Origin: Lachnospiraceae bacterium
GTDB lineage: Bacteria > Bacillota > Clostridia > Lachnospirales > Lachnospiraceae
Direction of reading: 5' to 3'
Assembly (NCBI GenBank): GCA_045130455.1
Contig: JBGUPV010000155.1
Span: forward strand, 22,890-86,889
DNA: 64,000 nucleotides
A program made the position numbers and the translations under genes. The notes beneath the pieces were generated by a model, which saw only the letters and a program-made list of their open reading frames with translations, was not told where the DNA came from and did not search any database. Positions 2,567 through 51,000 of the stretch are shown piece after piece (the first letter of the stretch is position 1; every line of letters starts with the position of its first letter).

Positions 2567-4771
2567 TTATTCAAAGGTATATCCCTCATACATCAACAGA
2601 TGTTTCATGTACAGATAGGGATCCGACGGGTACAGATACACATGAACATCATAATCACTGATCAGGTTCTTCAAAAGGATCTCGGGGATATGATCCAAAA
2701 CATCCTTCGGAAGCATTCTGTCCACTTTGCTCGCCGAGATATTGTAGACACTCCCCCACGGGAAATCGATCAGACCCCAATCCCAACACGTCTGCACTCC
2801 TTCATCCCAATCGTATTCCATAACATACTGAGACAATGCCTTCGCGGCCTCCCCGGCCTCTTCCGGCGTCATCGCCTTTTTCCCGTCCTCCGTGCACAGA
2901 TCCGCCAGTAGTTCCGTCAACAGTTCCTCCGGCGAGACATCGTAAATGTCATCACGGGAAATGTATTTGCCGTCCTTCACCCACATGTTGAGGAAGAGTC
3001 TGTTCCAGTTATCATCATTTTCCCCTTTCACGTTTTCGCCTAATTCCAGTGAAACACAGGCATATCCGTTCGGAAAATACCGAATTGACGTCGCGACCAC
3101 GGAGCGCGGAGTAAAATTCTCTACATCTTCATACCAGGGGCTGTATGTGAGGAGCTTCTTCTCTCTCGGCCATTCCTTCGTAAGCCATTCACCGATAAAC
3201 GCAAGCATCTCTTCATCGGTATAATACCTTTCAATGACACGCTCCGGCTCACCGGGATACTCCCCGTAAATATGATACCAGCGCGGATACGGATCGTCGC
3301 CCTTATAGACCGTTACTTCCTGTTCTTTTCCACCGTCCGCAGGAATCCGAAGTTGTCCGGCAACCGTTTCCCTCACGGCACAATCAAATAACATTTCGCA
3401 CATGTCAAGCATCCCGAGAGAGCTGAAACGGTATCCCGGTTTCTCGAGGAAAACATCTTTTCCCTGACACAGATCCGGCAACGCCTGGGGAATATCGATC
3501 GAAATCTCATCTCCTAACACCCCGGGAAAATAAAGCCCCGAGCAGTAGCTGTAAAAGGTCTCCGTCCCCTTAAGCCCCGTAAACACTGCTCCGGAATCAT
3601 ATTCCATTGTTTCCCGATACCCATCATGATCCGGGTCGCTTCCTCTGGGCGGGTTTATCTCCCCGCTCTCCTGATAATCATCATCACGGAACCAGAAACT
3701 GTTTTCGCGAAGCTGCCGCTCGATCTCCTCATTCAGATACGCCGGATAATCCTCGCCGGCAGGAAAGAAATCCGAAAGTGTAAGTTCCTCGCCGGTCGCA
3801 AGGTTAAAGTTCAGTCCGACAACTTCCATGATCTCGTGCCAGAATTCCATCTTCATGCTGCCGGGTTCCGATTCTTCTTCCAACTCACTGTAAGCTGCCC
3901 GGAAACCGAACGTGTTGCAGGGCCAGTTCTCATACAGAAGCTTTTCCGCTTCCTCATAGGATGCGACCGTCCGGATCTCAGTCCATTCACGGTAAGCTCT
4001 TATCCGCACGGAAAAAAAGCCGTTGACCCCTCCTTGATCCATCGGTTCGACGGAAACTTCCACCTCAGGCGGTCCCCATTCCTTCACATACGAAAGAATA
4101 CCGGACATATCCGGAAGATAATCGGGGTCCGACAACGCTGCAACGGTTTCATCGATCCTGTCATTGATCTTTGCTGCGACTGCCGGATCCTTAATCCCGG
4201 AAACATGCAGCGTCAGGATCTGTCCGTCAATCTTGAGCCCGTATTCATTGACAAGAGGTTCTTCTCCGGTCCCCAAAACAACTCGCGCTGTCCGGATCGG
4301 ATTGATCCGGGAAATCCCGTGTGAAATGTTTTGCCGATCCTGCTCCGTCAGCGCCGGAGCCGTCCCTGTCTGTGCCGGCTCCCGCTTCGGATTGATGATC
4401 TCATGAAGCTCACGGTTGTGCCGGATCTGCTCCAAAGAACCGTACTCGACAGCAGGTATCGGCGTAATCGAATCCTTCGGATTCGGAGTAATCGTCGGCG
4501 TAACCGTAGCCTGCGGGGTAATCGGCGCCGTAGGAGTCGGGCTCGGGCTGTTCGCAGGTGTTACTTCGACCGTCGGCGTAACCGAATCCTGCGGTACCGG
4601 GCTCGGCGTTGCTTCCGGAGCCGCGGTTACGATCGCAGTGGCTGCGGGTGTATTGTCCGACGGCGTCGCCGACCCGTTCCCCGCACCTTCCTTTGTACAT
4701 GCGGAAAATATCATCGCCGAACAAAGCATTACGCTCATGACCGTCCAAAGAAATGTTTTCTTCTGTCTCAT
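2567..4771 (-). CDS. lipoprotein, RsiV/PdaC-like module; paralog B
   Basis: 734-aa ORF. ATG at 4769-4771 with GGAGGGAG upstream. Lipobox IFSAC and a T/P linker. LHVSGIKDPAVAAKINDRIDETV and FNLATGEELTLSDFFPAGEDY are present. C-terminus KHLLMYEGYTFE. Lies 15 nt downstream of paralog C's stop... (12 nt gap to paralog C, 15 nt gap to paralog A). Confidence 0.8.
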   Translation of the reverse strand: MRQKKTFLWTVMSVMLCSAMIFSACTKEGAGNGSATPSDNTPAATAIVTAAPEATPSPVPQDSVTPTVEVTPANSPSPTPTAPITPQATVTPTITPNPKDSITPIPAVEYGSLEQIRHNRELHEIINPKREPAQTGTAPALTEQDRQNISHGISRINPIRTARVVLGTGEEPLVNEYGLKIDGQILTLHVSGIKDPAVAAKINDRIDETVAALSDPDYLPDMSGILSYVKEWGPPEVEVSVEPMDQGGVNGFFSVRIRAYREWTEIRTVASYEEAEKLLYENWPCNTFGFRAAYSELEEESEPGSMKMEFWHEIMEVVGLNFNLATGEELTLSDFFPAGEDYPAYLNEEIERQLRENSFWFRDDDYQESGEINPPRGSDPDHDGYRETMEYDSGAVFTGLKGTETFYSYCSGLYFPGVLGDEISIDIPQALPDLCQGKDVFLEKPGYRFSSLGMLDMCEMLFDCAVRETVAGQLRIPADGGKEQEVTVYKGDDPYPRWYHIYGEYPGEPERVIERYYTDEEMLAFIGEWLTKEWPREKKLLTYSPWYEDVENFTPRSVVATSIRYFPNGYACVSLELGENVKGENDDNWNRLFLNMWVKDGKYISRDDIYDVSPEELLTELLADLCTEDGKKAMTPEEAGEAAKALSQYVMEYDWDEGVQTCWDWGLIDFPWGSVYNISASKVDRMLPKDVLDHIPEILLKNLISDYDVHVYLYPSDPYLYMKHLLMYEGYTFE

Positions 4772-8846: not shown

Positions 8847-11507
8847 TCACTGCTTGCCGAGGTGAGCCAGCTGCTCCTCAACCTGCTTCATCATCGCGGT
8901 GTATTTTTCGAGCTTCGCGCGCTCCTCGGCGATCTTCGCCTCGGGTGCCTTGGATACGAAGCGCTCGTTGCTGAGCATGCCGTTGACGCGGGCAAGCTCG
9001 CCGGTGAGACGCTCCTTCTCCTTCTGAAGTCGCTCGATCTCCTTTGCGATATCCACAAGATCCGACAGCGGCATGTAGACGGTCGCGCCTGCAACCACTA
9101 CGGACACAGCGTCGTCATCGATACCGGTCTTGTCGCTCTGAACCGTAACTTCGCTTGCGCTGCCGAGTGCTGCGAAGAAGTCCTTGCTGCCCTCGAAGAT
9201 TTCACGAACATGCTCCGAATCAGAAACAACGAACACCTTCGCCTTGCGCGACGGCGGAACGTTCATGTCGTTTCTGAGTACACGCATCGCGGTAACGGCG
9301 TTCTTGATCAGCTCAACCGCCTCTTCCTCACGGCTCCATACGAAGGCCTTGATGAACTCAGGCCACTCGGAGATCATGATGGAAGTGTTGTCATCGAGAT
9401 GTCCCTGTGCGTCGGCAAGGGTGCGGTAAATCTCCTCGGTGATGAACGGCATGAACGGATGCAACAGCTTCATGGACGTCGTGAGAACCATGCACAAGGT
9501 AAACATCGCAGCCTGCTTCGTCTTAAGCTCCGTGCCGTAGAGACGAGGCTTCACCATCTCGATGTACCAGTCGCAGAACTCGGACCAGATAAAGTCGTAA
9601 ATCTTGCCTGCGGCGATACCGAGCTCGAAGTTCTCAAGGTTCTCCGTAACGTCGGCTACCAGCTGGTTACACTTGGAAATGATCCAGCGGTCCGCGTCCG
9701 TAAGGGCACTCATATCAAGATCGCCGCTCATGTCAACCTGCTCGAGGTTCATCATGATGAAACGGCTCGCGTTCCAAACCTTGTTGGCGAAGTTGCGGCT
9801 TGCCTCAACACGCTCCCAGTAGAAGCGCATGTCGTTGCCGGGCGCGTTGCCGGTGACGAGCGTGAAGCGAAGCGCGTCCGCGCCGTATTTGTCGATCACC
9901 TCGAGAGGATCGATACCGTTTCCTAGGGACTTACTCATTTTCCGACCCTGAGAGTCGCGAACGAGACCGTGGATGAGAACCGTCTTGAACGGAACCTCGC
10001 CCATCTGCTCGATGCCGGAGAACATCATTCGCATTACCCAGAACGGGATGATGTCGTAACCGGTAACCAGCGTGCTCGTCGGGTAGAAATACTCAAGTTC
10101 CTTGGTCTTCTCCGGCCAGCCGAGGGTCGAGAACGGCCACAGAGCCGAGCTGAACCAGGTGTCCAGAGTATCGGGATCCTGGCGCATGGGCTTGCCGCAC
10201 TTCGGGCAAACAGCGCTGTCTTCCTTGGTTACTACCGTCTCGCCGCACGCGTCACAGTAGAACGCCGGGATCCGGTGGCCCCACCACAGCTGGCGGCTGA
10301 TGCACCAGTCGCGGATATTTTCAAGCCAATGGAAATATGTCTTCTCAAAATGCTCCGGAACGAACTGCGTCTCATCCTTCTTTACAGCGTCGATCGCGGG
10401 GCCTGCCAGCGGCTTCATCTTGACGAACCACTGCATCGAAACGCGGGGCTCGATGGTGGTGCCGCAACGGTAGCAGGTGCCTACGTTGTGGGCGTGATCC
10501 TCGATCTCCGTGAGGGCGCCGCACTCCTGCAGATCCTTTACGATTGCCTTGCGGGCCTCGTAGCGGTCCATGCCGGCGTACTTCGGATAGTCGTCCGTGA
10601 TCTTCGCATCGGGCGTCAGAACATTGATCACCGCGAGGTTGTGGCGGAGACCTACCTCAAAGTCATTAGGGTCATGAGCCGGTGTGATCTTGACAACACC
10701 GGTACCGAATTCCATGTCAACGTACTCGTCGCCGATCACCGGGATCTCGCGGCCCACGAGCGGCAGCGTAACGGTCTTGCCGATCAGGTGCTTGTAGCGG
10801 TCATCGTTCGGGTTAACCGCAACGGCGGTATCGCCGAGCATCGTCTCGGGACGCGTGGTTGCCATCTCAATGTAGCCGCTGCCGTCCGTGTACGGATAGC
10901 GCAGATGCCAGAAATGACCTGCCTGATCCTCGTAGTTTACCTCCGCGTCGGAGATCGTCGTCAGGCAGTGAGGGCACCAGTTGATGATGCGGTTTCCGCG
11001 GTAAATGAGCCCCTTGTTGTAGAGGTTTACGAAAACTTCCTTAACGGCTTTGTTGCAGCCCTCATCCATGGTGAAACGCTCGCGGTCCCAGTCGCAGGAC
11101 GAGCCCATTTTCTTCAGCTGGGAAATGATGCGGCCGCCGTACTGGCGCTTCCACTCCCATGCTCTCTCGAGGAAGCCCTCACGTCCGAGGTCCTCCTTCG
11201 TGATGCCTTCCTTTGCCATGGCCTCAACGATCTTCGCCTCGGTGGCGATGGACGCATGGTCTGTGCCGGGAAGCCACAGAGCCTCATAGCCCTGCATACG
11301 CTTGAAGCGGATCAAAATGTCCTGCAGCGTGTTGTCCAAAGCGTGGCCCATGTGCAGCTGTCCGGTGATGTTCGGCGGCGGGATCACGATCGTGTACGGC
11401 TTCTTCTCGGGCCGTACTTCCGCATGAAAATACTTCTTGTCCTGCCACATCTGATACAGGCGGTCTTCAATCTCTTTCGGATTGTAGGTTTTAGCCAGTT
11501 CCTTCAT
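8847..11507 (-). CDS. valS: valine--tRNA ligase
   Basis: Class I aaRS motifs are present ([13 protein letters not shown] and KMSKSLGN), with full-length similarity to ValS including the C-terminal coiled coil. I place the start at the ATG at 11505-11507 ([14 protein letters not shown]), which has AAGGAG upstream. The ORF-track start at 11597 adds 30 Arg/Ser-rich residues that overlap the T-box terminator. Confidence 0.97.
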
Positions 11508-11587
11508 GTGTTGCTCCTTTCTGTGTGGGTGCGCTGTCCCGCAACCTCGCGAACTGCGTTCGCTCGGTGTACGTGCGCTCGGAACCC

Positions 11588-11889
11588 AAATAAACAAAGA
11601 CGCCCCTCGCCGTATAAGGACGAGGGGCTGTTCGTGGTACCACCTTATTTCGCAGCTTGCGCTGCCTCTTTACGCCGCTCCAACAAGCGACTCATCGGTA
11701 ACGGGATTACCCGGAGATTCCTATTCCCGCATCGCCGCGCCAGAAAGCACCGCTGCCGGTTTCAAAATCTCAGCTCCGAAGCTACTTCCGCATCTCCGTC
11801 TCCGAACCGGTCTTGCAGCCTTGAACCGGTCTCTCTGTCGGTCGGTGGAAACGTACTCCTCTTCTTCCATGCCTTTGTGTTATGAATAT
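11588..11889 (-). promoter_or_regulatory. T-box leader (tRNA-sensing riboswitch) of valS, probable Val (GUA) specifier
   Basis: The minus strand carries the AGAGAG GA-motif at the Stem I base (rc of 11831-11840). The conserved T-box AAUAAGGUGGUACCACG is the rc of about 11631-11650. A terminator follows: CCCCUCG-UCCUUAUACGG-CGAGGGG then CGUCUUUGUUUAUUU (11588-11628). The candidate specifier is GAA-GUA-G (GUA is the rc of 11783-11785). Confidence 0.85.
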
Positions 11890-45841: not shown

Positions 45842-46660
45842 TTACTTCAACGGAACTACCGCACCGTCATATTTTCCTTCGATAAACTTCTTAACGTCCT
45901 CGCTCTGAAGTACCTCGACAAGCACCTTGAGTGCCTCGTTGTCCTTCTTCGAAGGAACCGTTGCGATGATGTTGCCGTAGGTCTGGGCCGCAAGGCCGTC
46001 ATTGGCCTCTACCGCCAGCGCCTGGCTTACATGAAGGCCGCCCTCGATCGCGTAGTTGCCGTTGATGACTGCAACGTCAACGTCCGGAAGCGCTGCCACG
46101 AGCTGCTCGGGAGCAAGCTCCTTGAACTGAAGATTCTTCGGGTTCGACTCGATGTCGCCGATCGTTGCGGTGATGCCTGCGCCTTCCTTCAGCGTGAGAA
46201 GACCTTCCTGTGCCAGCAGAAGAAGTGCTCTGGCCTCGTTCGTTACGTTGTTGGGAACCGCTATCGTTGCACCGTCCGGAAGATCCGCAAGGTTCTTCGT
46301 GCGTCCTGCGTAGATGCCGAAGGGCTCATAGTGGATCGCGCCGATGGAGACGAGGTCGCTCTTATTTTCCTTGTTGAACTGCTCAAGATACGGAACATGC
46401 TGGAAATAGTTTGCGTCAAGGCTGCCCTCGATCACGCCCGTGTTCGGTGTGATGGAGTCCTCGAGCTGTACGATCTCAAGCGTGTAGCCTTTCTCCTTCA
46501 GGATAGGCTTTACATACTCGAGGATCTCTGCGTGGGGAACGATGTTTGCACCGACTTTGATGGTCTTGCTGTCGGATTTCTTCTTGTCGTCCTTGCCGCA
46601 TCCGACGAGCGACAGGGCGAAGATGAGGATAAGTGCTGCGATGATTGATTTCTTTTTCAT
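45842..46660 (-). CDS. metQ: methionine ABC transporter substrate-binding lipoprotein (MetQ/NlpA family)
   Basis: MKKKSIIAALILIFALSLVGCGKD is a lipobox signal peptide. IKVGANIVPHAEILEYVKPILKEKGYTLEIV...DANYFQHVPYLEQFN is typical of NlpA/MetQ. Confidence 0.88.
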   Translation of the reverse strand: MKKKSIIAALILIFALSLVGCGKDDKKKSDSKTIKVGANIVPHAEILEYVKPILKEKGYTLEIVQLEDSITPNTGVIEGSLDANYFQHVPYLEQFNKENKSDLVSIGAIHYEPFGIYAGRTKNLADLPDGATIAVPNNVTNEARALLLLAQEGLLTLKEGAGITATIGDIESNPKNLQFKELAPEQLVAALPDVDVAVINGNYAIEGGLHVSQALAVEANDGLAAQTYGNIIATVPSKKDNEALKVLVEVLQSEDVKKFIEGKYDGAVVPLK

Positions 46661-46798
46661 GATGGTAATCTCCTTATGATTTCTACAGTTTTATTTTCCA
46701 CCGAATACTTTTTGTCTTTGCTCTTACCTTTTTGGATAAACCGTAACCCCGGCATTCCGGATATGACCGGGTCTCGGGTTTATTCGTTTACGCTCCGG

Positions 46799-47452
46799 TC
46801 AGGACTTGCGCCGGATCTTGGAGAGAAGTCCTCCCGCTCCCTGGATCACCATGACCATGATCACGAGAAGGATCACGGTCGTCCAGAGAACGTCTTTCTG
46901 ATAGCGGTAGTAACCGTACTGGAGTGCGATGGCGCCCAGGCCGCCGCCTCCGATCACGCCCGCCATCGCCGAGTAGCCGAGGACCGTGGCTACGTTGATG
47001 GCTGCTCCCTGCAGAAGCGAAGGTGCCGCTTCGGGCAGGATGAAATGTATGATGATGTGCAGAGGCGAAGCTCCCATGGAGGTCGCCGCCTCGATGATCC
47101 CCGGCTGAACCTCACACAGCGAGGCTTCCACCATTCGCGCGACGATCGGGATCGCACCGACCGTGAGCGGCACGATCGCCGCCGTCGTCCCGATGGACGA
47201 GCCGGTCACCCAGCGCGTGAAGGGGATCAACAGTACAAGTAAAATGAGGAACGGCAGCGAACGCATGAGGTTCACCAGAACTCCGATGACCAGGTTGACC
47301 GGCCGGTTCTGCAGCAGTCTTCCTTTCGCGGTGGCGTACAGGATCACGCCGAGCGGAAGTCCCACGATGTATGCGTACAGCGATGCGTATGCCGTCATCC
47401 GAAGCGTCTCCCAGACGCCGTTTTTGATGGCTTCGATGATGTAGTCGCTCAT
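46799..47452 (-). CDS. metI: methionine ABC transporter permease
   Basis: 217 aa with 5 TM helices. The ATG overlaps the metN stop (ATGA at 47449-47452). The EAA-like loop EASLCEVQPGIIEAATSMGASPLHII is present. Confidence 0.88.
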   Translation of the reverse strand: MSDYIIEAIKNGVWETLRMTAYASLYAYIVGLPLGVILYATAKGRLLQNRPVNLVIGVLVNLMRSLPFLILLVLLIPFTRWVTGSSIGTTAAIVPLTVGAIPIVARMVEASLCEVQPGIIEAATSMGASPLHIIIHFILPEAAPSLLQGAAINVATVLGYSAMAGVIGGGGLGAIALQYGYYRYQKDVLWTTVILLVIMVMVIQGAGGLLSKIRRKS

Positions 47453-48498
47453 GCTTCATCCACCTCCGATATCGCAAGTCCTTTCTCGCGGAAGTAGTCG
47501 ATCACGATCTTCCGATCGCTTTCCTCCTTCGGAAGCTCCAGGACCATCTGGCCGTATCCGACGCCGCCCACGCTCTTGGTGTTGGCGCTTAGGATGTTGA
47601 CCTTCTGTCCGGTGGTCGCCACGAGATCCGCGATGAACGGTTCCTTGGCCGACAGCCCGTCAAATGCGATGCGGATCAGCCGGCTGTTCTCGTCCGACGG
47701 ATCGTACGGATTGCTCGGGAATACCAGTTTCTTGGCTGCCTTCGACTTCGGCGCCCGGAAGACTTCCTTCACATCCCCGACCTCGGCAAGATTGCCGTCG
47801 TCGATGATCGCGACTCTGTCGCAGATGCGCTCCACCACGGACATCTCGTGCGTGATGATCACGACCGTAAGCTTCTGTTCCCGGTTGATCTTCTGAAGAA
47901 GTTCCAGGATCTCGCCGGTGATCTTCGGATCCAGCGCGCTCGTCGCCTCGTCGCAGAGCAGAACCTTCGGATTCGCCGCAAGTGCTCTGGCGATCGCCAC
48001 CCGCTGCCGCTGTCCTCCGGACAGTCTCGCGGGGTATTCCTTTTCCTTCTCGGAAAGGCCGACGACCTCAAGCATTTTCCGCGCGATCTCCTTTCGCTCC
48101 TTCCGGCCGACCCCCGCGATGCGGAGCGGCTGCTCCACGTTCTTGATCACGGTTCTCTGCTGCAGGAGGTTGAACCCCTGAAAGATCATCGCGATCGAGC
48201 GGCGCACCTTTCGAAGTTCCCTCGCCTTCAGTTCCGCAAGGTCCCTTCCGAAATACCTGACGCTTCCCTCGCTCACTTCCGTGAGACGGTTCAGCGTGCG
48301 CACCAGGGTCGATTTTCCTGCACCGCTCATTCCGATGATTCCAAAGATCTCTCCCTCCCGGATGGAAAAACTCACGTTCCGGAGTGCCGTAAAATCCTTT
48401 CCTTCATTTCGATACGTCTTCGAAACCCGATCCAGTTCAAACACGGTGACCGGTCCGTCATCCTTTATGAAATTGTCCGTCTCATTCACCGTGCTCAT
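47449..48498 (-). CDS. metN: methionine ABC transporter ATP-binding protein with C-terminal NIL domain
   Basis: Walker A GMSGAGKST, signature LSGGQRQRVAIARAL, Walker B VLLCDEATSALD. I prefer the ATG at 48496-48498 (MSTVNE, GAGAGG upstream) over the TTG at 48516. Confidence 0.9.
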   Translation of the reverse strand: MSTVNETDNFIKDDGPVTVFELDRVSKTYRNEGKDFTALRNVSFSIREGEIFGIIGMSGAGKSTLVRTLNRLTEVSEGSVRYFGRDLAELKARELRKVRRSIAMIFQGFNLLQQRTVIKNVEQPLRIAGVGRKERKEIARKMLEVVGLSEKEKEYPARLSGGQRQRVAIARALAANPKVLLCDEATSALDPKITGEILELLQKINREQKLTVVIITHEMSVVERICDRVAIIDDGNLAEVGDVKEVFRAPKSKAAKKLVFPSNPYDPSDENSRLIRIAFDGLSAKEPFIADLVATTGQKVNILSANTKSVGGVGYGQMVLELPKEESDRKIVIDYFREKGLAISEVDEA

Positions 48499-48512
48499 GC
48501 TGTTCGTGCCTC

Positions 48513-49424
48513 TCAATCATATAATCCTTTGCTGATGTATCGGTCGCCGCGGTCCGGAAAGACGGTGACGATGCTGCCGTGATCGATGCGCTCAGCAAGC
48601 CTCAGGGCTGCCGCGAGCGCCGCTCCCGACGAGGAACCGGCCAGAACGCCTTCCCTGCGCGCCAGCTCCTTCACGGTGGCAAATGCCTCCGCGTCCGTCA
48701 CTTTGATGACCTCGTCGACCAACGACATGTCCATTGTCTTGGCAATGAAATCATTGCCGATGCCCTCGATATCGTAGTCCGCGTGCTCGCCTCCGCCGAT
48801 GGTCGAACCGACCGGATCCGCAAGCACTCCGCGAACGGAAGGCTTCTGCTCTTTCAGATAGCGGACGATCCCACTGAACGTTCCGCCGCTGCCGGCGCCT
48901 GCCACAAAGTAGTCGACATCCCCGTCAAGCTGACGCCAGATCTCCGGGCCCGTGGTCTCGTAGTGTGCCTGCGGGTTTGCCGGATTGTCGAACTGCTTTA
49001 AAGAGATCGCTCCCGGGATCGTTGCGATGATCCGCTCCGCTTCCCTCGACGCCCCGAGCATTCCGTCCTCGCGCGGCGTGTTCACGATCTCCGCTCCGAG
49101 AGCCCGAAGGACTTTCTGCTTCTCCTGGGAAAATTTCTCGGGAACCGTGAAGATGACCCGGTAGCCCTGGTTGAGCGCCGCGATCGCGATGCCGATACCG
49201 GTGTTACCGGCCGTGGCGTCCACGATTGTGCTGCCTTCTTTGAGAAGTCCCCGCCGCTTGGCGTCGTCGATCATATACATGCCGACGCGGTCCTTGACGC
49301 TTCCGGCCGGGTTGGCCAGCTCAAGTTTCGCGTACAGTCTGACATTTTCCTTGGTTTCAAAATTCTGAAGACGCAGGATCGGTGTGTTCCCGATCATACT
49401 GCGGATGTCCATGTAAACATCCAT
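48513..49424 (-). CDS. PLP-dependent cysteine synthase family enzyme (CysK / MccA-type)
   Basis: IGNTPILRL...LELANPAGSVKDR (PLP lysine)...ATAGNTGIGIAIAA...GAGSGGTFSG. I prefer the ATG at 49422-49424, 6 nt after GAGGTGA. Cysteine synthase and O-acetylserine-dependent cystathionine beta-synthase cannot be told apart by eye. Confidence 0.85.
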   Translation of the reverse strand: MDVYMDIRSMIGNTPILRLQNFETKENVRLYAKLELANPAGSVKDRVGMYMIDDAKRRGLLKEGSTIVDATAGNTGIGIAIAALNQGYRVIFTVPEKFSQEKQKVLRALGAEIVNTPREDGMLGASREAERIIATIPGAISLKQFDNPANPQAHYETTGPEIWRQLDGDVDYFVAGAGSGGTFSGIVRYLKEQKPSVRGVLADPVGSTIGGGEHADYDIEGIGNDFIAKTMDMSLVDEVIKVTDAEAFATVKELARREGVLAGSSSGAALAAALRLAERIDHGSIVTVFPDRGDRYISKGLYD

Positions 49425-49455
49425 TGTTATCACCTCGCTGTTCTGAATGTAAATG

Positions 49456-50607
49456 TCATCTGCGGGCGGCTTCGATCGCCTGCCGCAGATCCGCGATCAG
49501 ATCGTCCGCATCCTCGATGCCGACCGAAAAACGAATGAGCTCGTCCACGATGCCGGTCTGACGGCGAATGTCCGCAGGGATGGATGCGTGCGTCATGCTT
49601 GCCGGATGGCACACCAGCGACTCCACGCCGCCCAGGCTCTCCGCAAGTGTTATCAATTTAAGGTTTCGGAAAAAAGCGCGATAGTCGAACTCGTCTCTGA
49701 GGACGAAAGAGATCATTGCGCCCGGCCCGTCCGCCTGCTTCTTCTGCACGGCGTACCCGGGATCCGAGGCAAGCCCCGGAAAATACACTCTCTTCACATA
49801 GCCGCTTTCCTGCAGCCACTCTGCGATGCGCTGCGCGTTGGCAACGTGGCGATCCATTCGGACGCCGAGAGTCTTAATTCCGCGGATGACTAAGAAACTG
49901 TCGAACGGGGAGAGAACTCCGCCGATCGCGTTTTGTAAGAAATACAACCGTTCCGCGATCTCTTTGTCTCGAAGTGCTACGAGACCGGAGATCGTGTCGC
50001 TGTGTCCGCCGAGGTACTTCGTGCCGCTGTGGATGACGATGTCTGCTCCGAGTTCGAGCGGCCGCTGCAGGTACGGCGTGAGGAACGTGTTGTCAACGAT
50101 CAGGAGGACGCCGGCCTTCTTCGCGATCTTCGCGGTCGCTGCTATGTCCGTCACGCTAAGAAGCGGATTGGCCGGTGTTTCGATATAGATGGCTTTCGTG
50201 TTCGGATCGATCGCCGCTTCGATCTTCGCCGTGTCGGTCGTATCGGTGATCTCATACCGAAGCCCGAGCGGCTTGAAGACCTTGTCGAGGATCCGGAACG
50301 TCCCGCCGTAAATGTTGTCGGAAATGATGATCTTGTCTCCCGCCGCGAACAGCGAGAGCACCGTGTGGATCGCGGCGAGGCCTGAGGCAAATGCGAGTCC
50401 GTACTCGCCGCCCTCGAGATCCGCGATCAGCTTCTCGAGAGCCGCCCGCGTCGGATTGCCGGTTCTGGAGTACTCCCAGCCGGTGTTGACTCCGAGCTCG
50501 CTCTGTTTATAGGTTGATGTCTGGTAGATCGGAACGTTTACCGCTCCGGTTGTTTTGTCTCCGTCGATGCCTCCGTGGATCAATAAAGAATTCAATGCAA
50601 GACTCAT
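49456..50607 (-). CDS. Cys/Met-metabolism PLP-dependent enzyme (cystathionine gamma-lyase/synthase or beta-lyase family)
   Basis: The start is moved to the ATG at 50605-50607 (MSLALNSLLIHGG...PIYQTSTY). The PLP-lysine block HSGTKYLGGHSD is present. The track start at 50709 would read through the upstream terminator. Confidence 0.88.
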   Translation of the reverse strand: MSLALNSLLIHGGIDGDKTTGAVNVPIYQTSTYKQSELGVNTGWEYSRTGNPTRAALEKLIADLEGGEYGLAFASGLAAIHTVLSLFAAGDKIIISDNIYGGTFRILDKVFKPLGLRYEITDTTDTAKIEAAIDPNTKAIYIETPANPLLSVTDIAATAKIAKKAGVLLIVDNTFLTPYLQRPLELGADIVIHSGTKYLGGHSDTISGLVALRDKEIAERLYFLQNAIGGVLSPFDSFLVIRGIKTLGVRMDRHVANAQRIAEWLQESGYVKRVYFPGLASDPGYAVQKKQADGPGAMISFVLRDEFDYRAFFRNLKLITLAESLGGVESLVCHPASMTHASIPADIRRQTGIVDELIRFSVGIEDADDLIADLRQAIEAARR

Positions 50608-50671
50608 GTCAGTTAACCTCGATTTCTGTGTATTTTCCGCTCTCCCGCGGCGTATCTGCCGAAAAAAGGCA

Positions 50672-50703
50672 TAAGAAAAGGGAGCCTCTTCAAGGAAGCT
50701 CCC
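50672..50703 (-). terminator. leader attenuator (intrinsic terminator) upstream of the Cys/Met operon
   Basis: Minus strand: GGGAGCUUC-CUUGAA-GAGGCUCCC, a 9-bp stem whose G-U pair forms only on the minus-strand RNA. It is followed by UUUUCUUAU and lies about 65 nt before the first structural gene. Confidence 0.75.
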
Positions 50704-50742
50704 GAGCAAATGGCGTATTCGTATCGTCCGTCGGATGTCCTA

Positions 50743-50880
50743 TCACAGACATCGACAGTCTACACTGTTAAGGCGCATCGAAAAGCAGTCGAACGCCCCG
50801 GCCACGGAAAATGCTCGGGATACCATCTGCATTCGACAGCAACACATCGCGTTGTAGTTGTATGTTGCGGACCGCTTCAT
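50743..50880 (-). CDS. candidate 45-codon regulatory leader peptide rich in Cys/Met codons
   Basis: Too short for the ORF track. AAAGGAGG (rc of 50889-50896) lies 8 nt before the ATG (rc of 50878-50880). Translation: MKRSATYNYNAMCCCRMQMVSRAFSVAGAFDCFSMRLNSVDCRCL, then TGA (rc of 50743-50745). It has 6 Cys and 5 Met in 45 residues, with the cluster M-C-C-C-R-M-Q-M at codons 12-19. Confidence 0.5.
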   Translation of the reverse strand: MKRSATYNYNAMCCCRMQMVSRAFSVAGAFDCFSMRLNSVDCRCL

Positions 50881-50933
50881 CGTCAGCGCCTCCTTTCAAG
50901 GTTTGGATCACGTTCGTTTTGCGTGATGTCGAC

Positions 50934-50962
50934 ATATTATCACCATTAACCTACTATGTCAA
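50934..50962 (-). promoter_or_regulatory. sigma-70-type promoter of the Cys/Met operon leader
   Basis: Minus strand: TTGACA (rc of 50957-50962), a 17-nt spacer, then TAATAT (rc of 50934-50939). Confidence 0.65.
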
Positions 50963-51000
50963 TAGGTATTTTGAAAAATTTATCATTTCTTTTTTGAACG

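Follow-up and report, generated by a model that had tools for sequence, protein, structure and literature searches.

The leader of a sulfur amino-acid operon in a Lachnospiraceae bacterium is very probably a ribosome-mediated (leader-peptide) transcription attenuator that reports the charging of cysteine tRNA (tRNA-Cys), and possibly that of methionine tRNA (tRNA-Met) as well. Leader and operon both lie on the minus strand of the window, the 64,000-nucleotide (nt) stretch of DNA analysed here, to which all coordinates without a locus label refer, and the operon under the attenuator appears from its gene content to combine methionine uptake with methionine-to-cysteine conversion. A sequence-only reading of this stretch had listed a promoter, a Shine-Dalgarno (SD) sequence, a 45-codon open reading frame (ORF), a 9-nt complementarity and a terminator, and had proposed attenuation of the trp/his type; all of these elements were found where it had placed them, on the minus strand, and its proposal is supported in that none of the computable outcomes that would speak against it occurred. 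The parts, their conservation, the covariation of the antiterminator helix P1, the placement and geometry of the cysteine (Cys) codons, and the replacement of a Cys-specific T-box can be regarded as established by sequence and comparison. The sensing of Cys is well supported, and the sensing of methionine (Met), which the sequence-only reading had put on the same footing, is only suggested by codon enrichment.

The leader ORF (50743..50880; 45 codons plus the UGA stop at 50745-50743) begins with an ATG at 50880, to which the SD sequence AAAGGAGG (50889..50896) stands at a distance of 8 nt, and translates as MKRSATYNYNAMCCCRMQMVSRAFSVAGAFDCFSMRLNSVDCRCL. Cys or Met accounts for 11 of the 45 residues, and the peptide contains the motif M-C-C-C-R-M, in which the candidate regulatory codons are Cys codons 13-15 (UGU UGC UGU; 50836..50844), flanked by Met codons 12, 17 and 19. 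No family in Pfam or NCBIfam matches the peptide, and comparison of its 45 residues with 5.8 billion proteins returned a single match (P0001, 89% identity), a predicted gene of a metagenome; ORFs of this size seldom appear among predicted genes, and for this reason the peptide search could not define a family. The MccB protein encoded by the first gene of the operon retrieved 160 loci (L numbers below) from genome and metagenome collections, the closest being metagenome-assembled genomes (MAGs) of rumen Lachnospiraceae and Clostridiales. In every close relative that has an upstream intergenic region, this region contains an ORF of 27-45 codons that is preceded by an SD and includes CC or CCC in frame, and the resulting family comprises about 20 leaders, orthologous or paralogous, among them L001 (peptide MKSFTAFNYSVMCCCRMHEV...), L002, L005-L010, L014 (...EMCCCRMQIN...), L081-L085 and L087. 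L161, the contig of P0001, shows the same arrangement, and the closest relative differs by a synonymous UGC-to-UGU change in the Cys run. Second leader copies are present in L002, L003 and L007, and copies stand before longer operons in L004 and L083.

The conservation of the ORF, to which the sequence-only reading had tied its proposal, is borne out in these leaders. An SD sequence of at least 4-6 nt is found in every family member, the run of 2-3 Cys codons is conserved with codons that differ only as UGU vs UGC, and the N-terminal parts of the ORFs vary in both sequence and length. Across 15 orthologous ORFs, the reading frame contains 0 in-frame stops vs 40 and 32 in the other two frames, and the spacings between the conserved blocks (Cys run, B1 and CGAUGU) are 12/15/18 nt and 33/54/57/63 nt, all multiples of three. 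Three loci depart from this pattern, with a Cys run interrupted by Met or other codons (CQDMCMRM, RMCSMSGM, MCSMWCRM; L012:1449-1574, upstream in L013, and L003:~3996-4130), and L013 has no obvious terminator; these variants may be decaying or differently wired leaders. In L006, the leader terminator is separated from mccB by an insertion of ~260 nt (L006:~1345-1555), which has long inverted repeats and looks like a miniature mobile element.

Downstream of the Cys run, the leader is built from segments with alternative partners. Segment B1 UCCCGAGCA (50812..50820), the 5' strand of the antiterminator P1, is perfectly complementary to D2 UGCUCGGGA (50708-50700), and D2 shares the first 4 nt of the 5' arm of the terminator, so that P1 and the terminator are mutually exclusive. 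An inner part of P1 is predicted from duplex and minimum free energy (MFE) folds between B2 (GUGGC; 50801..50805) and D1 (GCCAU; 50714-50710), D1 and D2 together forming the 3' strand of P1 (50700..50714); pairs equivalent to B2:D1 are found in L001 (AUGCGG/CCGUAU), L014 and L087. The intrinsic terminator (50672..50703) has a 9-bp stem, GGGAGCUUC/GAGGCUCCC, with 6 G-C pairs and a 6-nt loop (50703-50680), followed by a T tract (50679-50672) that ends ~65 nt ahead of the mccB start, and a terminator is found in every member of the family. From the stop codon of the leader ORF it is 28 nt to D1, 34 nt to D2 and 39 nt to the terminator stem. The sequence-only reading had stopped short of a switching logic for the 105 nt that separate the two complementary segments; an explanation can now be proposed, in which this interval folds as two hairpins, P2 (GGGGCGUUCGA ... 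UCGAUGCGCC; 50772..50799) and P3 (50730..50758), predicted to be the arms of a three-way junction closed by P1 (B1:D2 plus B2:D1). P3 spans the last codons (CGA UGU CUG) and the UGA stop, and P3-like hairpins occur in orthologues with differing 3' strands. Leader ORFs end in CGA-UGU (Arg-Cys), sometimes doubled, 0-3 codons ahead of the stop in 12 of 15 members (50749-50754, minus strand, in the window), and this motif is the 5' strand of P3.

The antiterminator is supported by both energetics and covariation. The duplex between the 36 nt after the Cys run and the 5' flank of the terminator has an energy of -23.5 kcal/mol, against -13.5±2.9 for shuffled sequences (p ~0.002), and the fold of the whole leader likewise beats its shuffles (z = -3.5). 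RNAalifold, given 11 leaders cut just past the 5' arm of the terminator, predicts P1 (B1:D2) and P2 unprompted, with 94% of alignment cells paired in P1, including G-C to A-U swaps, and 82% in P2. Furthermore, a gap-free alignment of 17 leaders anchored on a central CG shows double changes in 7 of the 11 P1 pairs; there are 22 double-change cells where 9.9±2.5 are expected, and the covariation score is 0.362 where 0.191±0.030 is expected, neither value being reached in any of 500 shuffles. When the P1 registers are slid, the proportion of paired cells falls to 22-56%. These data demonstrate compensatory change in the 9-nt pairing that the sequence-only reading had singled out, B1:D2 covarying beyond all 500 shuffles. 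A MAFFT alignment of whole leaders was unreliable in mid-leader and was set aside for the truncated and the anchored gap-free alignments.

A second, competing structure is suggested by two further segments, A GUCGAAUGC (50829..50837), which would lie under a ribosome stalled on the Cys codons, and X, CCGGG GCGUUCGAC (50788..50801). A and X GGCCGGGGCGUUCGAC are both strongly conserved and are complementary to each other, with 9 bp in A:X2 and 4-5 bp in B1:X1; X could thus either pair with A and B1 to form hairpin H1, a putative anti-antiterminator, or pair with the 3' strand of P2. H1 is present in the ribosome-free MFE folds of L001, L014, L087 and others, and 79% of alignment cells are paired in A:X2 and 82% in H1, compared with 33-44% in slid registers. 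In the window, the 3' half of B1 is another possible partner of A. An earlier candidate for the anti-antiterminator, in which A (UGUCGA) pairs with the C-terminal UCGAUG, was dropped, the MFE folds recovering A:X2 instead.

The footprint of a ribosome is usually 28-30 nt, with a toeprint at +16. To relate the Cys codons to these structures, a stalled ribosome was modelled as 29 unpaired nt (-15 to +13 around the first base in the A site) and slid along the ORF codon by codon, and the gain in energy from the pairing of D with RNA upstream of it was calculated in the transcript that precedes synthesis of the 3' arm of the terminator. Over 20 leaders, the mean gain from engaging D was -14.6 kcal/mol when the Cys run occupied the A site, -11.6 kcal/mol with the ribosome absent, -12.0 kcal/mol with the ribosome on N-terminal codons, and only -4.8 kcal/mol when it stood 2-7 codons beyond the Cys run (Wilcoxon p = 2e-6 to 6e-4, nominal values given that the leaders are not independent). 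In all 20 leaders the gain collapses 1-3 codons past the last Cys codon. This energy profile indicates that the Cys codons are the last positions at which a paused ribosome leaves B1 free, and those at which the A-dependent competitor is removed. In L001 and L014, a footprint on the first Cys codon flips the full-length MFE fold from H1 plus terminator to P1. The equilibrium probability of the terminator as a function of ribosome position was also considered and proved uninformative because the terminators are too stable; the D-engagement energy replaced it.

The same geometry bears on Met. Among 17 leaders, 13 have a Met codon at -1 of the Cys run and 14 have one at +2; Cys makes up 12% and Met ~9% of leader residues, and the enrichment of Met holds in unrelated leader families too. 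The Met at -1 lies inside the permissive window, so sensing of Met is plausible, and the AUG at +2 belongs to segment A, so its conservation could be structural.

In the mechanism that we propose, a ribosome would load at the strong SD soon after transcription starts. If Cys-tRNA is scarce, the ribosome would stall with its A site on one of codons 13-15, its footprint (to about +13 nt) covering A and ending just before B1; X would then fold into P2, and B1 and B2 would remain free to pair with D1 and D2 on their exit from the polymerase. P1 would close the P1-P2-P3 three-way junction and occupy the first bases of the terminator 5' arm, the terminator would be blocked, and the polymerase would read into mccB-mccA-metNIQ. 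If Cys-tRNA is plentiful, the ribosome would proceed through B1, X, P2 and P3 to the stop codon, and behind it A and B1 would re-pair with X or with each other, leaving B1 unavailable when D appears, so that the local terminator hairpin could form and transcription would end at the U tract. Ribosome stalling, the synchronisation of RNA polymerase with the ribosome, the role of H1 and the physiological response are what we infer from the model.

Several points weigh against this account. At equilibrium the terminator dominates at any footprint position in most leaders, and ribosome-free RNA favours P1 by about -11.6 kcal/mol before the terminator 3' arm exists. Since naked RNA prefers P1, termination in Cys-replete cells is assumed to be kinetic or ribosome-dependent; the translating ribosome, or H1 re-forming behind it, would secure termination when Cys is plentiful, and such a dependence on the ribosome could be the reason for an ORF that extends close to the terminator, its stop codon lying 10-39 nt short of it. 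The classical attenuation model does not need such a long ORF, and attenuation accounts neither for the conservation of CGA-UGU nor for the terminal Cys codon. H1 is supported by conservation (82% paired) and hardly by covariation, and contributes ~3 kcal/mol on average. Finally, the anchors of the 17-sequence alignment were picked by eye, and the leaders are related sequences, which makes the p-values nominal.

To examine whether the signal is particular to Cys, both strands of all loci and of the window (1.94 Mb) were scanned mechanically for an SD sequence, an ORF of 8-60 codons and a terminator within 100 nt. Around mccB homologues this yielded 56 sense and 30 antisense ORFs; at least two consecutive Cys were found in 29 of the 56 sense ORFs and in none of the 30 antisense ORFs, and the next commonest doublets in sense ORFs were those of Ala (9) and Arg (9). 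Sense ORFs contained 9.2% Cys and 6.3% Met, compared with 1.3% and 3.1%, respectively, in antisense ORFs. These data indicate that the leader signal is specific to Cys.

The scan also recovered Cys leaders unrelated to the family described above. One such family (MT..MNMCMNSCMYM..ACCAFRM) precedes an NMT1/SsuA-like binding protein in Ruminococcus-type MAGs, and further Cys leaders are present in other Bacillota (L015, L036, L037, L095 and L096) and in Treponema/Spirochaetes (L021, L028 and L093), where a GGCGGA just after the Cys codons duplicates the 3' arm of the terminator. The unrelated families have in common only a Cys/Met-rich ORF and a terminator, and no RNA fold, and a shared ORF without a shared fold argues for codon sensing and against an aptamer. 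Coordinates can be given for two sets of such leaders. Met/Cys-rich leader ORFs of the form MT..MNMCMNSCMYMTQEA.FCV.ACC.FRM, with terminators, lie 3-4 kb downstream of mccB in Ruminococcus- and Clostridiales-type MAGs (L042:6978-7079, L045:6863-6964, L063:5935-6030, L064:6079-6174 and L067:6172-6267); the next gene, readable in L064 and L067, encodes an NMT1/SsuA-like ABC substrate-binding protein. The second set consists of poly-Cys leader ORFs, containing as many as 8 Cys (e.g., MRNNMMCCMQCCCCMN...) and followed by terminators, that precede a gene for an LCM-type S-adenosylmethionine (SAM) methyltransferase (L062:1810-1917, L044:95-232, L112:1089-1214, L028:~1887-1960 and L093:~1360-1450); this methyltransferase is fused to MetK in L044, and its gene stands where the ubiG-mccBA operon of Clostridium has ubiG.

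A search of the leader strand with cmscan against Rfam 15 gave no match at the gathering score or at E<=10, including T-box (RF00230), SAM/S-box and other sulfur riboswitches, so that the known riboswitch class by which the sequence-only reading might have been overturned did not appear; the 20 related leaders likewise match no Rfam family, and neither a T-box sequence nor a specifier loop was found in the leader. Rfam scans of the window and 40 loci detected only T-boxes (valS in the window, Cys in Clostridium) and one thiamine pyrophosphate (TPP) element. The T-box of the window (11613-11878, minus strand; 104 bits, GUA (Val) specifier) immediately precedes valS (11597..8850), indicating that the organism uses T-boxes elsewhere, though not for the Met-to-Cys operon. 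A T-box occupies the position of the leader in L018, L020, L022, L031 and L040 (Clostridium ljungdahlii, C. tepidum, C. argentinense and others), and the specifier reads GAA-UGC-A (Cys) in L020 and L031, the two loci whose T-box alignments were inspected. A Cys-specific T-box has been described for the ubiG-mccBA operon of Clostridium acetobutylicum (André et al. 2008, PMC2566862). The expectation that Firmicutes normally place RNA sensors at such operons therefore holds, the Clostridium orthologues carrying a T-box with a UGC (Cys) specifier (PMC2566862).

The operon (45842..50607) consists, by NCBIfam scan, of genes for an MccB-like pyridoxal phosphate (PLP) lyase (cystathionine lyase; 50607-49456) and a CysK/MccA-like enzyme (49433-48513), followed by metN (48516-47449), metI (47452-46799) and metQ (46660-45842), all on the minus strand. 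A sigma-70-type promoter precedes the leader (50934..50962; TTGACA-17-TAATAT with a TGn extension, 10 of 12 matches) and is conserved in orthologous leaders; with the transcription start placed ~7 nt past the -10 box, the 5' untranslated region (UTR) is ~47 nt long. A promoter scan found no promoter-like site between the terminator and the first gene, which implies that mccB depends on read-through. Upstream of the SD, the 5'-proximal hairpin AUCACG-N9-CGUGAU (50907..50927; MFE fold, conserved in L161) may possibly serve as a 5' stabiliser.

The -35 box is overlapped by an inverted repeat, ACCTATTGACATAGTAGGT (50949..50967), a candidate operator through which control would be exerted at a further level. 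Of the 160 loci, 15 contain the pattern CCTATTGACANNNTAGG, in every case on the sense strand and upstream of sulfur operons. Its sites are L001:1588, L002:510 and 4676, L003:3908, L004:501, L007:3959, L008:1080 and 2742, L014:2663, L021:2739, L028:1809, L081:402, L084:1605, L085:763, L087:2188, L093:1316 and L102:2370. They accompany Cys-leader operons of Lachnospiraceae and of Treponema/Spirochaetes loci, and also precede a leaderless mccB (L102) and an iscS-like cysteine desulfurase gene that has no leader ORF (L008:1080). The repeat looks like the operator of a Cys/Fe-S regulator, or like a promoter cassette that has spread horizontally. Some orthologous leaders or operons (L005, L011, L013 and L082) are preceded by another operator-like repeat, TTATCAC-N3-CGATAA, in place of the CCTATTGACA motif.

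Other readings of the leader were weighed against this evidence. It is very unlikely that the leader is a ligand- or tRNA-binding RNA switch, with an incidental ORF and with P1-P2-P3 as an aptamer that recognises a sulfur metabolite or uncharged tRNA. The conserved three-way junction of ~105 nt, with its invariant GGCCGGGGCG, GCGCC and CGAUGU, is reminiscent of riboswitch aptamers, and ribosome-free RNA does favour P1; however, the Rfam and T-box searches came back empty, the conserved stretches are explained by the alternative pairings A:X2, B1:X1 and P2, and if the ORF were incidental, one would not expect the SD, the start codon and the Cys run to be kept, the frame to stay open and indels to come in multiples of three, nor unrelated leaders at related operons to share the Cys-rich ORF and not the fold. 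A junction that additionally binds a sulfur metabolite (e.g., O-acetylserine, homocysteine or S-adenosylhomocysteine), combining a ligand with the tRNA-Cys/tRNA-Met signal, is also improbable. That the ORF is an independent small gene with its own terminator, encoding a metal-binding peptide, a precursor of a ribosomally synthesised and post-translationally modified peptide (RiPP) or a toxin, the operon being expressed otherwise, is scarcely credible. A 45-residue ORF with a strong SD and a terminator does resemble a mini-gene, and a homologue was annotated as a gene in one metagenome, but the peptide matches no protein family and is not conserved beyond the positions constrained by RNA pairing, the terminator 5' arm covaries with a segment within the ORF, the element is always followed directly by sulfur genes, in the sense orientation, and no promoter separates the terminator from mccB.

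The two remaining explanations retain parts of the leader and assign the control elsewhere. Main control by a transcription factor at the -35 inverted repeat, with the leader terminator as a constitutive leaky damper, draws on the conservation of CCTATTGACANNNTAGG in 15 loci and on the copy before an iscS-like gene without a leader ORF. We consider it unlikely, as it leaves unexplained the Cys run, the covarying antiterminator and the location of the Cys codons at the limit of the permissive window, and leaders with other promoter motifs (L005 and L082) retain both ORF and attenuator; such a factor is compatible with attenuation, and so more likely an added layer than an alternative. Stalling could instead work through effects coupled to translation (Rho-dependent polarity or mRNA stability, for example), as the unusual length of the ORF and its end near the terminator might suggest, and the Cys short ORFs (sORFs) of mycobacteria do work without terminators (10.1101/834739; PMC1262725); yet every family member has a canonical intrinsic terminator with a U tract, whose 5' arm is mutually exclusive with the covarying helix, and this explanation appears highly improbable. 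A milder and more probable version of the combined-signal reading, that one leader peptide senses Cys and Met together through M-C-C-(C)-R-M and, with the shared promoter-operator, defines a cross-phylum 'sulfur ribulon' in gut anaerobes, is put forward tentatively, and we lean slightly against it. Taken together, the evidence favours attenuation driven by the translation of Cys codons.

Attenuation by leader peptides is textbook knowledge in Proteobacteria and rare in Firmicutes, where T-boxes and riboswitches do that job. In these data, Cys leader peptides with terminators are widespread, occurring in rumen Lachnospiraceae, Ruminococcus, other Bacillota and Treponema, and they sit where Clostridium has a Cys T-box, which makes them a natural case of a sensor swap on one signal. 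Many unannotated small ORFs of gut and rumen genomes are thereby identified as probably regulatory, the leaders could mark sulfur amino-acid regulons in uncultured anaerobes, and the model can be put to the test in Eubacterium oxidoreducens DSM 3217, a carrier that is in culture. A literature search found no description of Cys leader peptides in Clostridia, other Firmicutes or Spirochaetes, although its coverage was incomplete and an earlier description is possible. Attenuation by Cys is otherwise known as a translational mechanism in mycobacteria and as a prediction for cysS of Rhodobacterales.

For Actinobacteria, leaders with Cys codons had been predicted (PMC1262725), and those of mycobacteria were shown to work at the level of translation, with no terminator (10.1101/834739); as late as 2020, Canestrari et al. 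called Cys attenuation mediated by upstream ORFs (uORFs) previously undescribed (10.1101/834739). The polycysteine leaderless sORFs of that 'Cys ribulon' resemble the leader described here in that consecutive upstream Cys codons sense Cys-tRNA and control cysteine operons, and in that one genome holds several sORF-bearing operons, as L002, L003 and L007 have two copies each. The mycobacterial sORFs are leaderless, lack an SD and an intrinsic terminator, and unmask a downstream SD with which their Cys tract pairs, whereas the present leader has a 5' UTR of ~47 nt, a strong SD and a terminator/antiterminator pair, and so falls outside that group. The uORFC-8-2 motif of cysS in Rhodobacterales (Brewer et al. 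2021, PMC8632094) is similar in having an intrinsic terminator after a uORF that contains two tandem Cys codons, and in the mechanism proposed for it, ribosome-mediated attenuation, uORFC-8-2 being itself only predicted; it differs in phylum, in gene and in its two-stem fold, and gave no match to the leader in the Rfam scan.

The Cys T-box of Clostridium (PMC2566862) shares with the leader its position, the type of operon, the terminator/antiterminator output and presumably the signal of tRNA-Cys charging; it differs in binding uncharged tRNA directly, with no need for translation, whereas the leader uses a translated ORF. The His leader peptide of hisS/hisZ paralogues in Bacillus (Naville & Gautheret 2010, PMC2965389) is likewise a rare 'regular' Firmicute leader that replaces a T-box, although for another amino acid and other genes, and with an unrelated sequence. 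The enterobacterial attenuators (trp, his, leu, thr, pheA and ilv) bear no sequence relationship to the leader either, yet they share its plan: a promoter-proximal short ORF with a run of codons for the regulating amino acid; a mutually exclusive terminator and antiterminator, with an anti-antiterminator that is putative in the leader; and regulatory codons 10-18 nt upstream of the antiterminator 5' strand. The leader departs from them in that cysteine, possibly together with methionine, would be the amino acid sensed, the host is a Firmicute of the class Clostridia, the ORF of 27-45 codons crosses the whole antiterminator domain to a stop 10-39 nt before the terminator, the antiterminator is predicted to close a three-way junction where theirs is a simple hairpin, and the operon appears to salvage and convert sulfur amino acids (Met uptake, Met to Cys) where theirs encode a de novo pathway. 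Functionally, the leader thus appears to be classical attenuation in a variant form.

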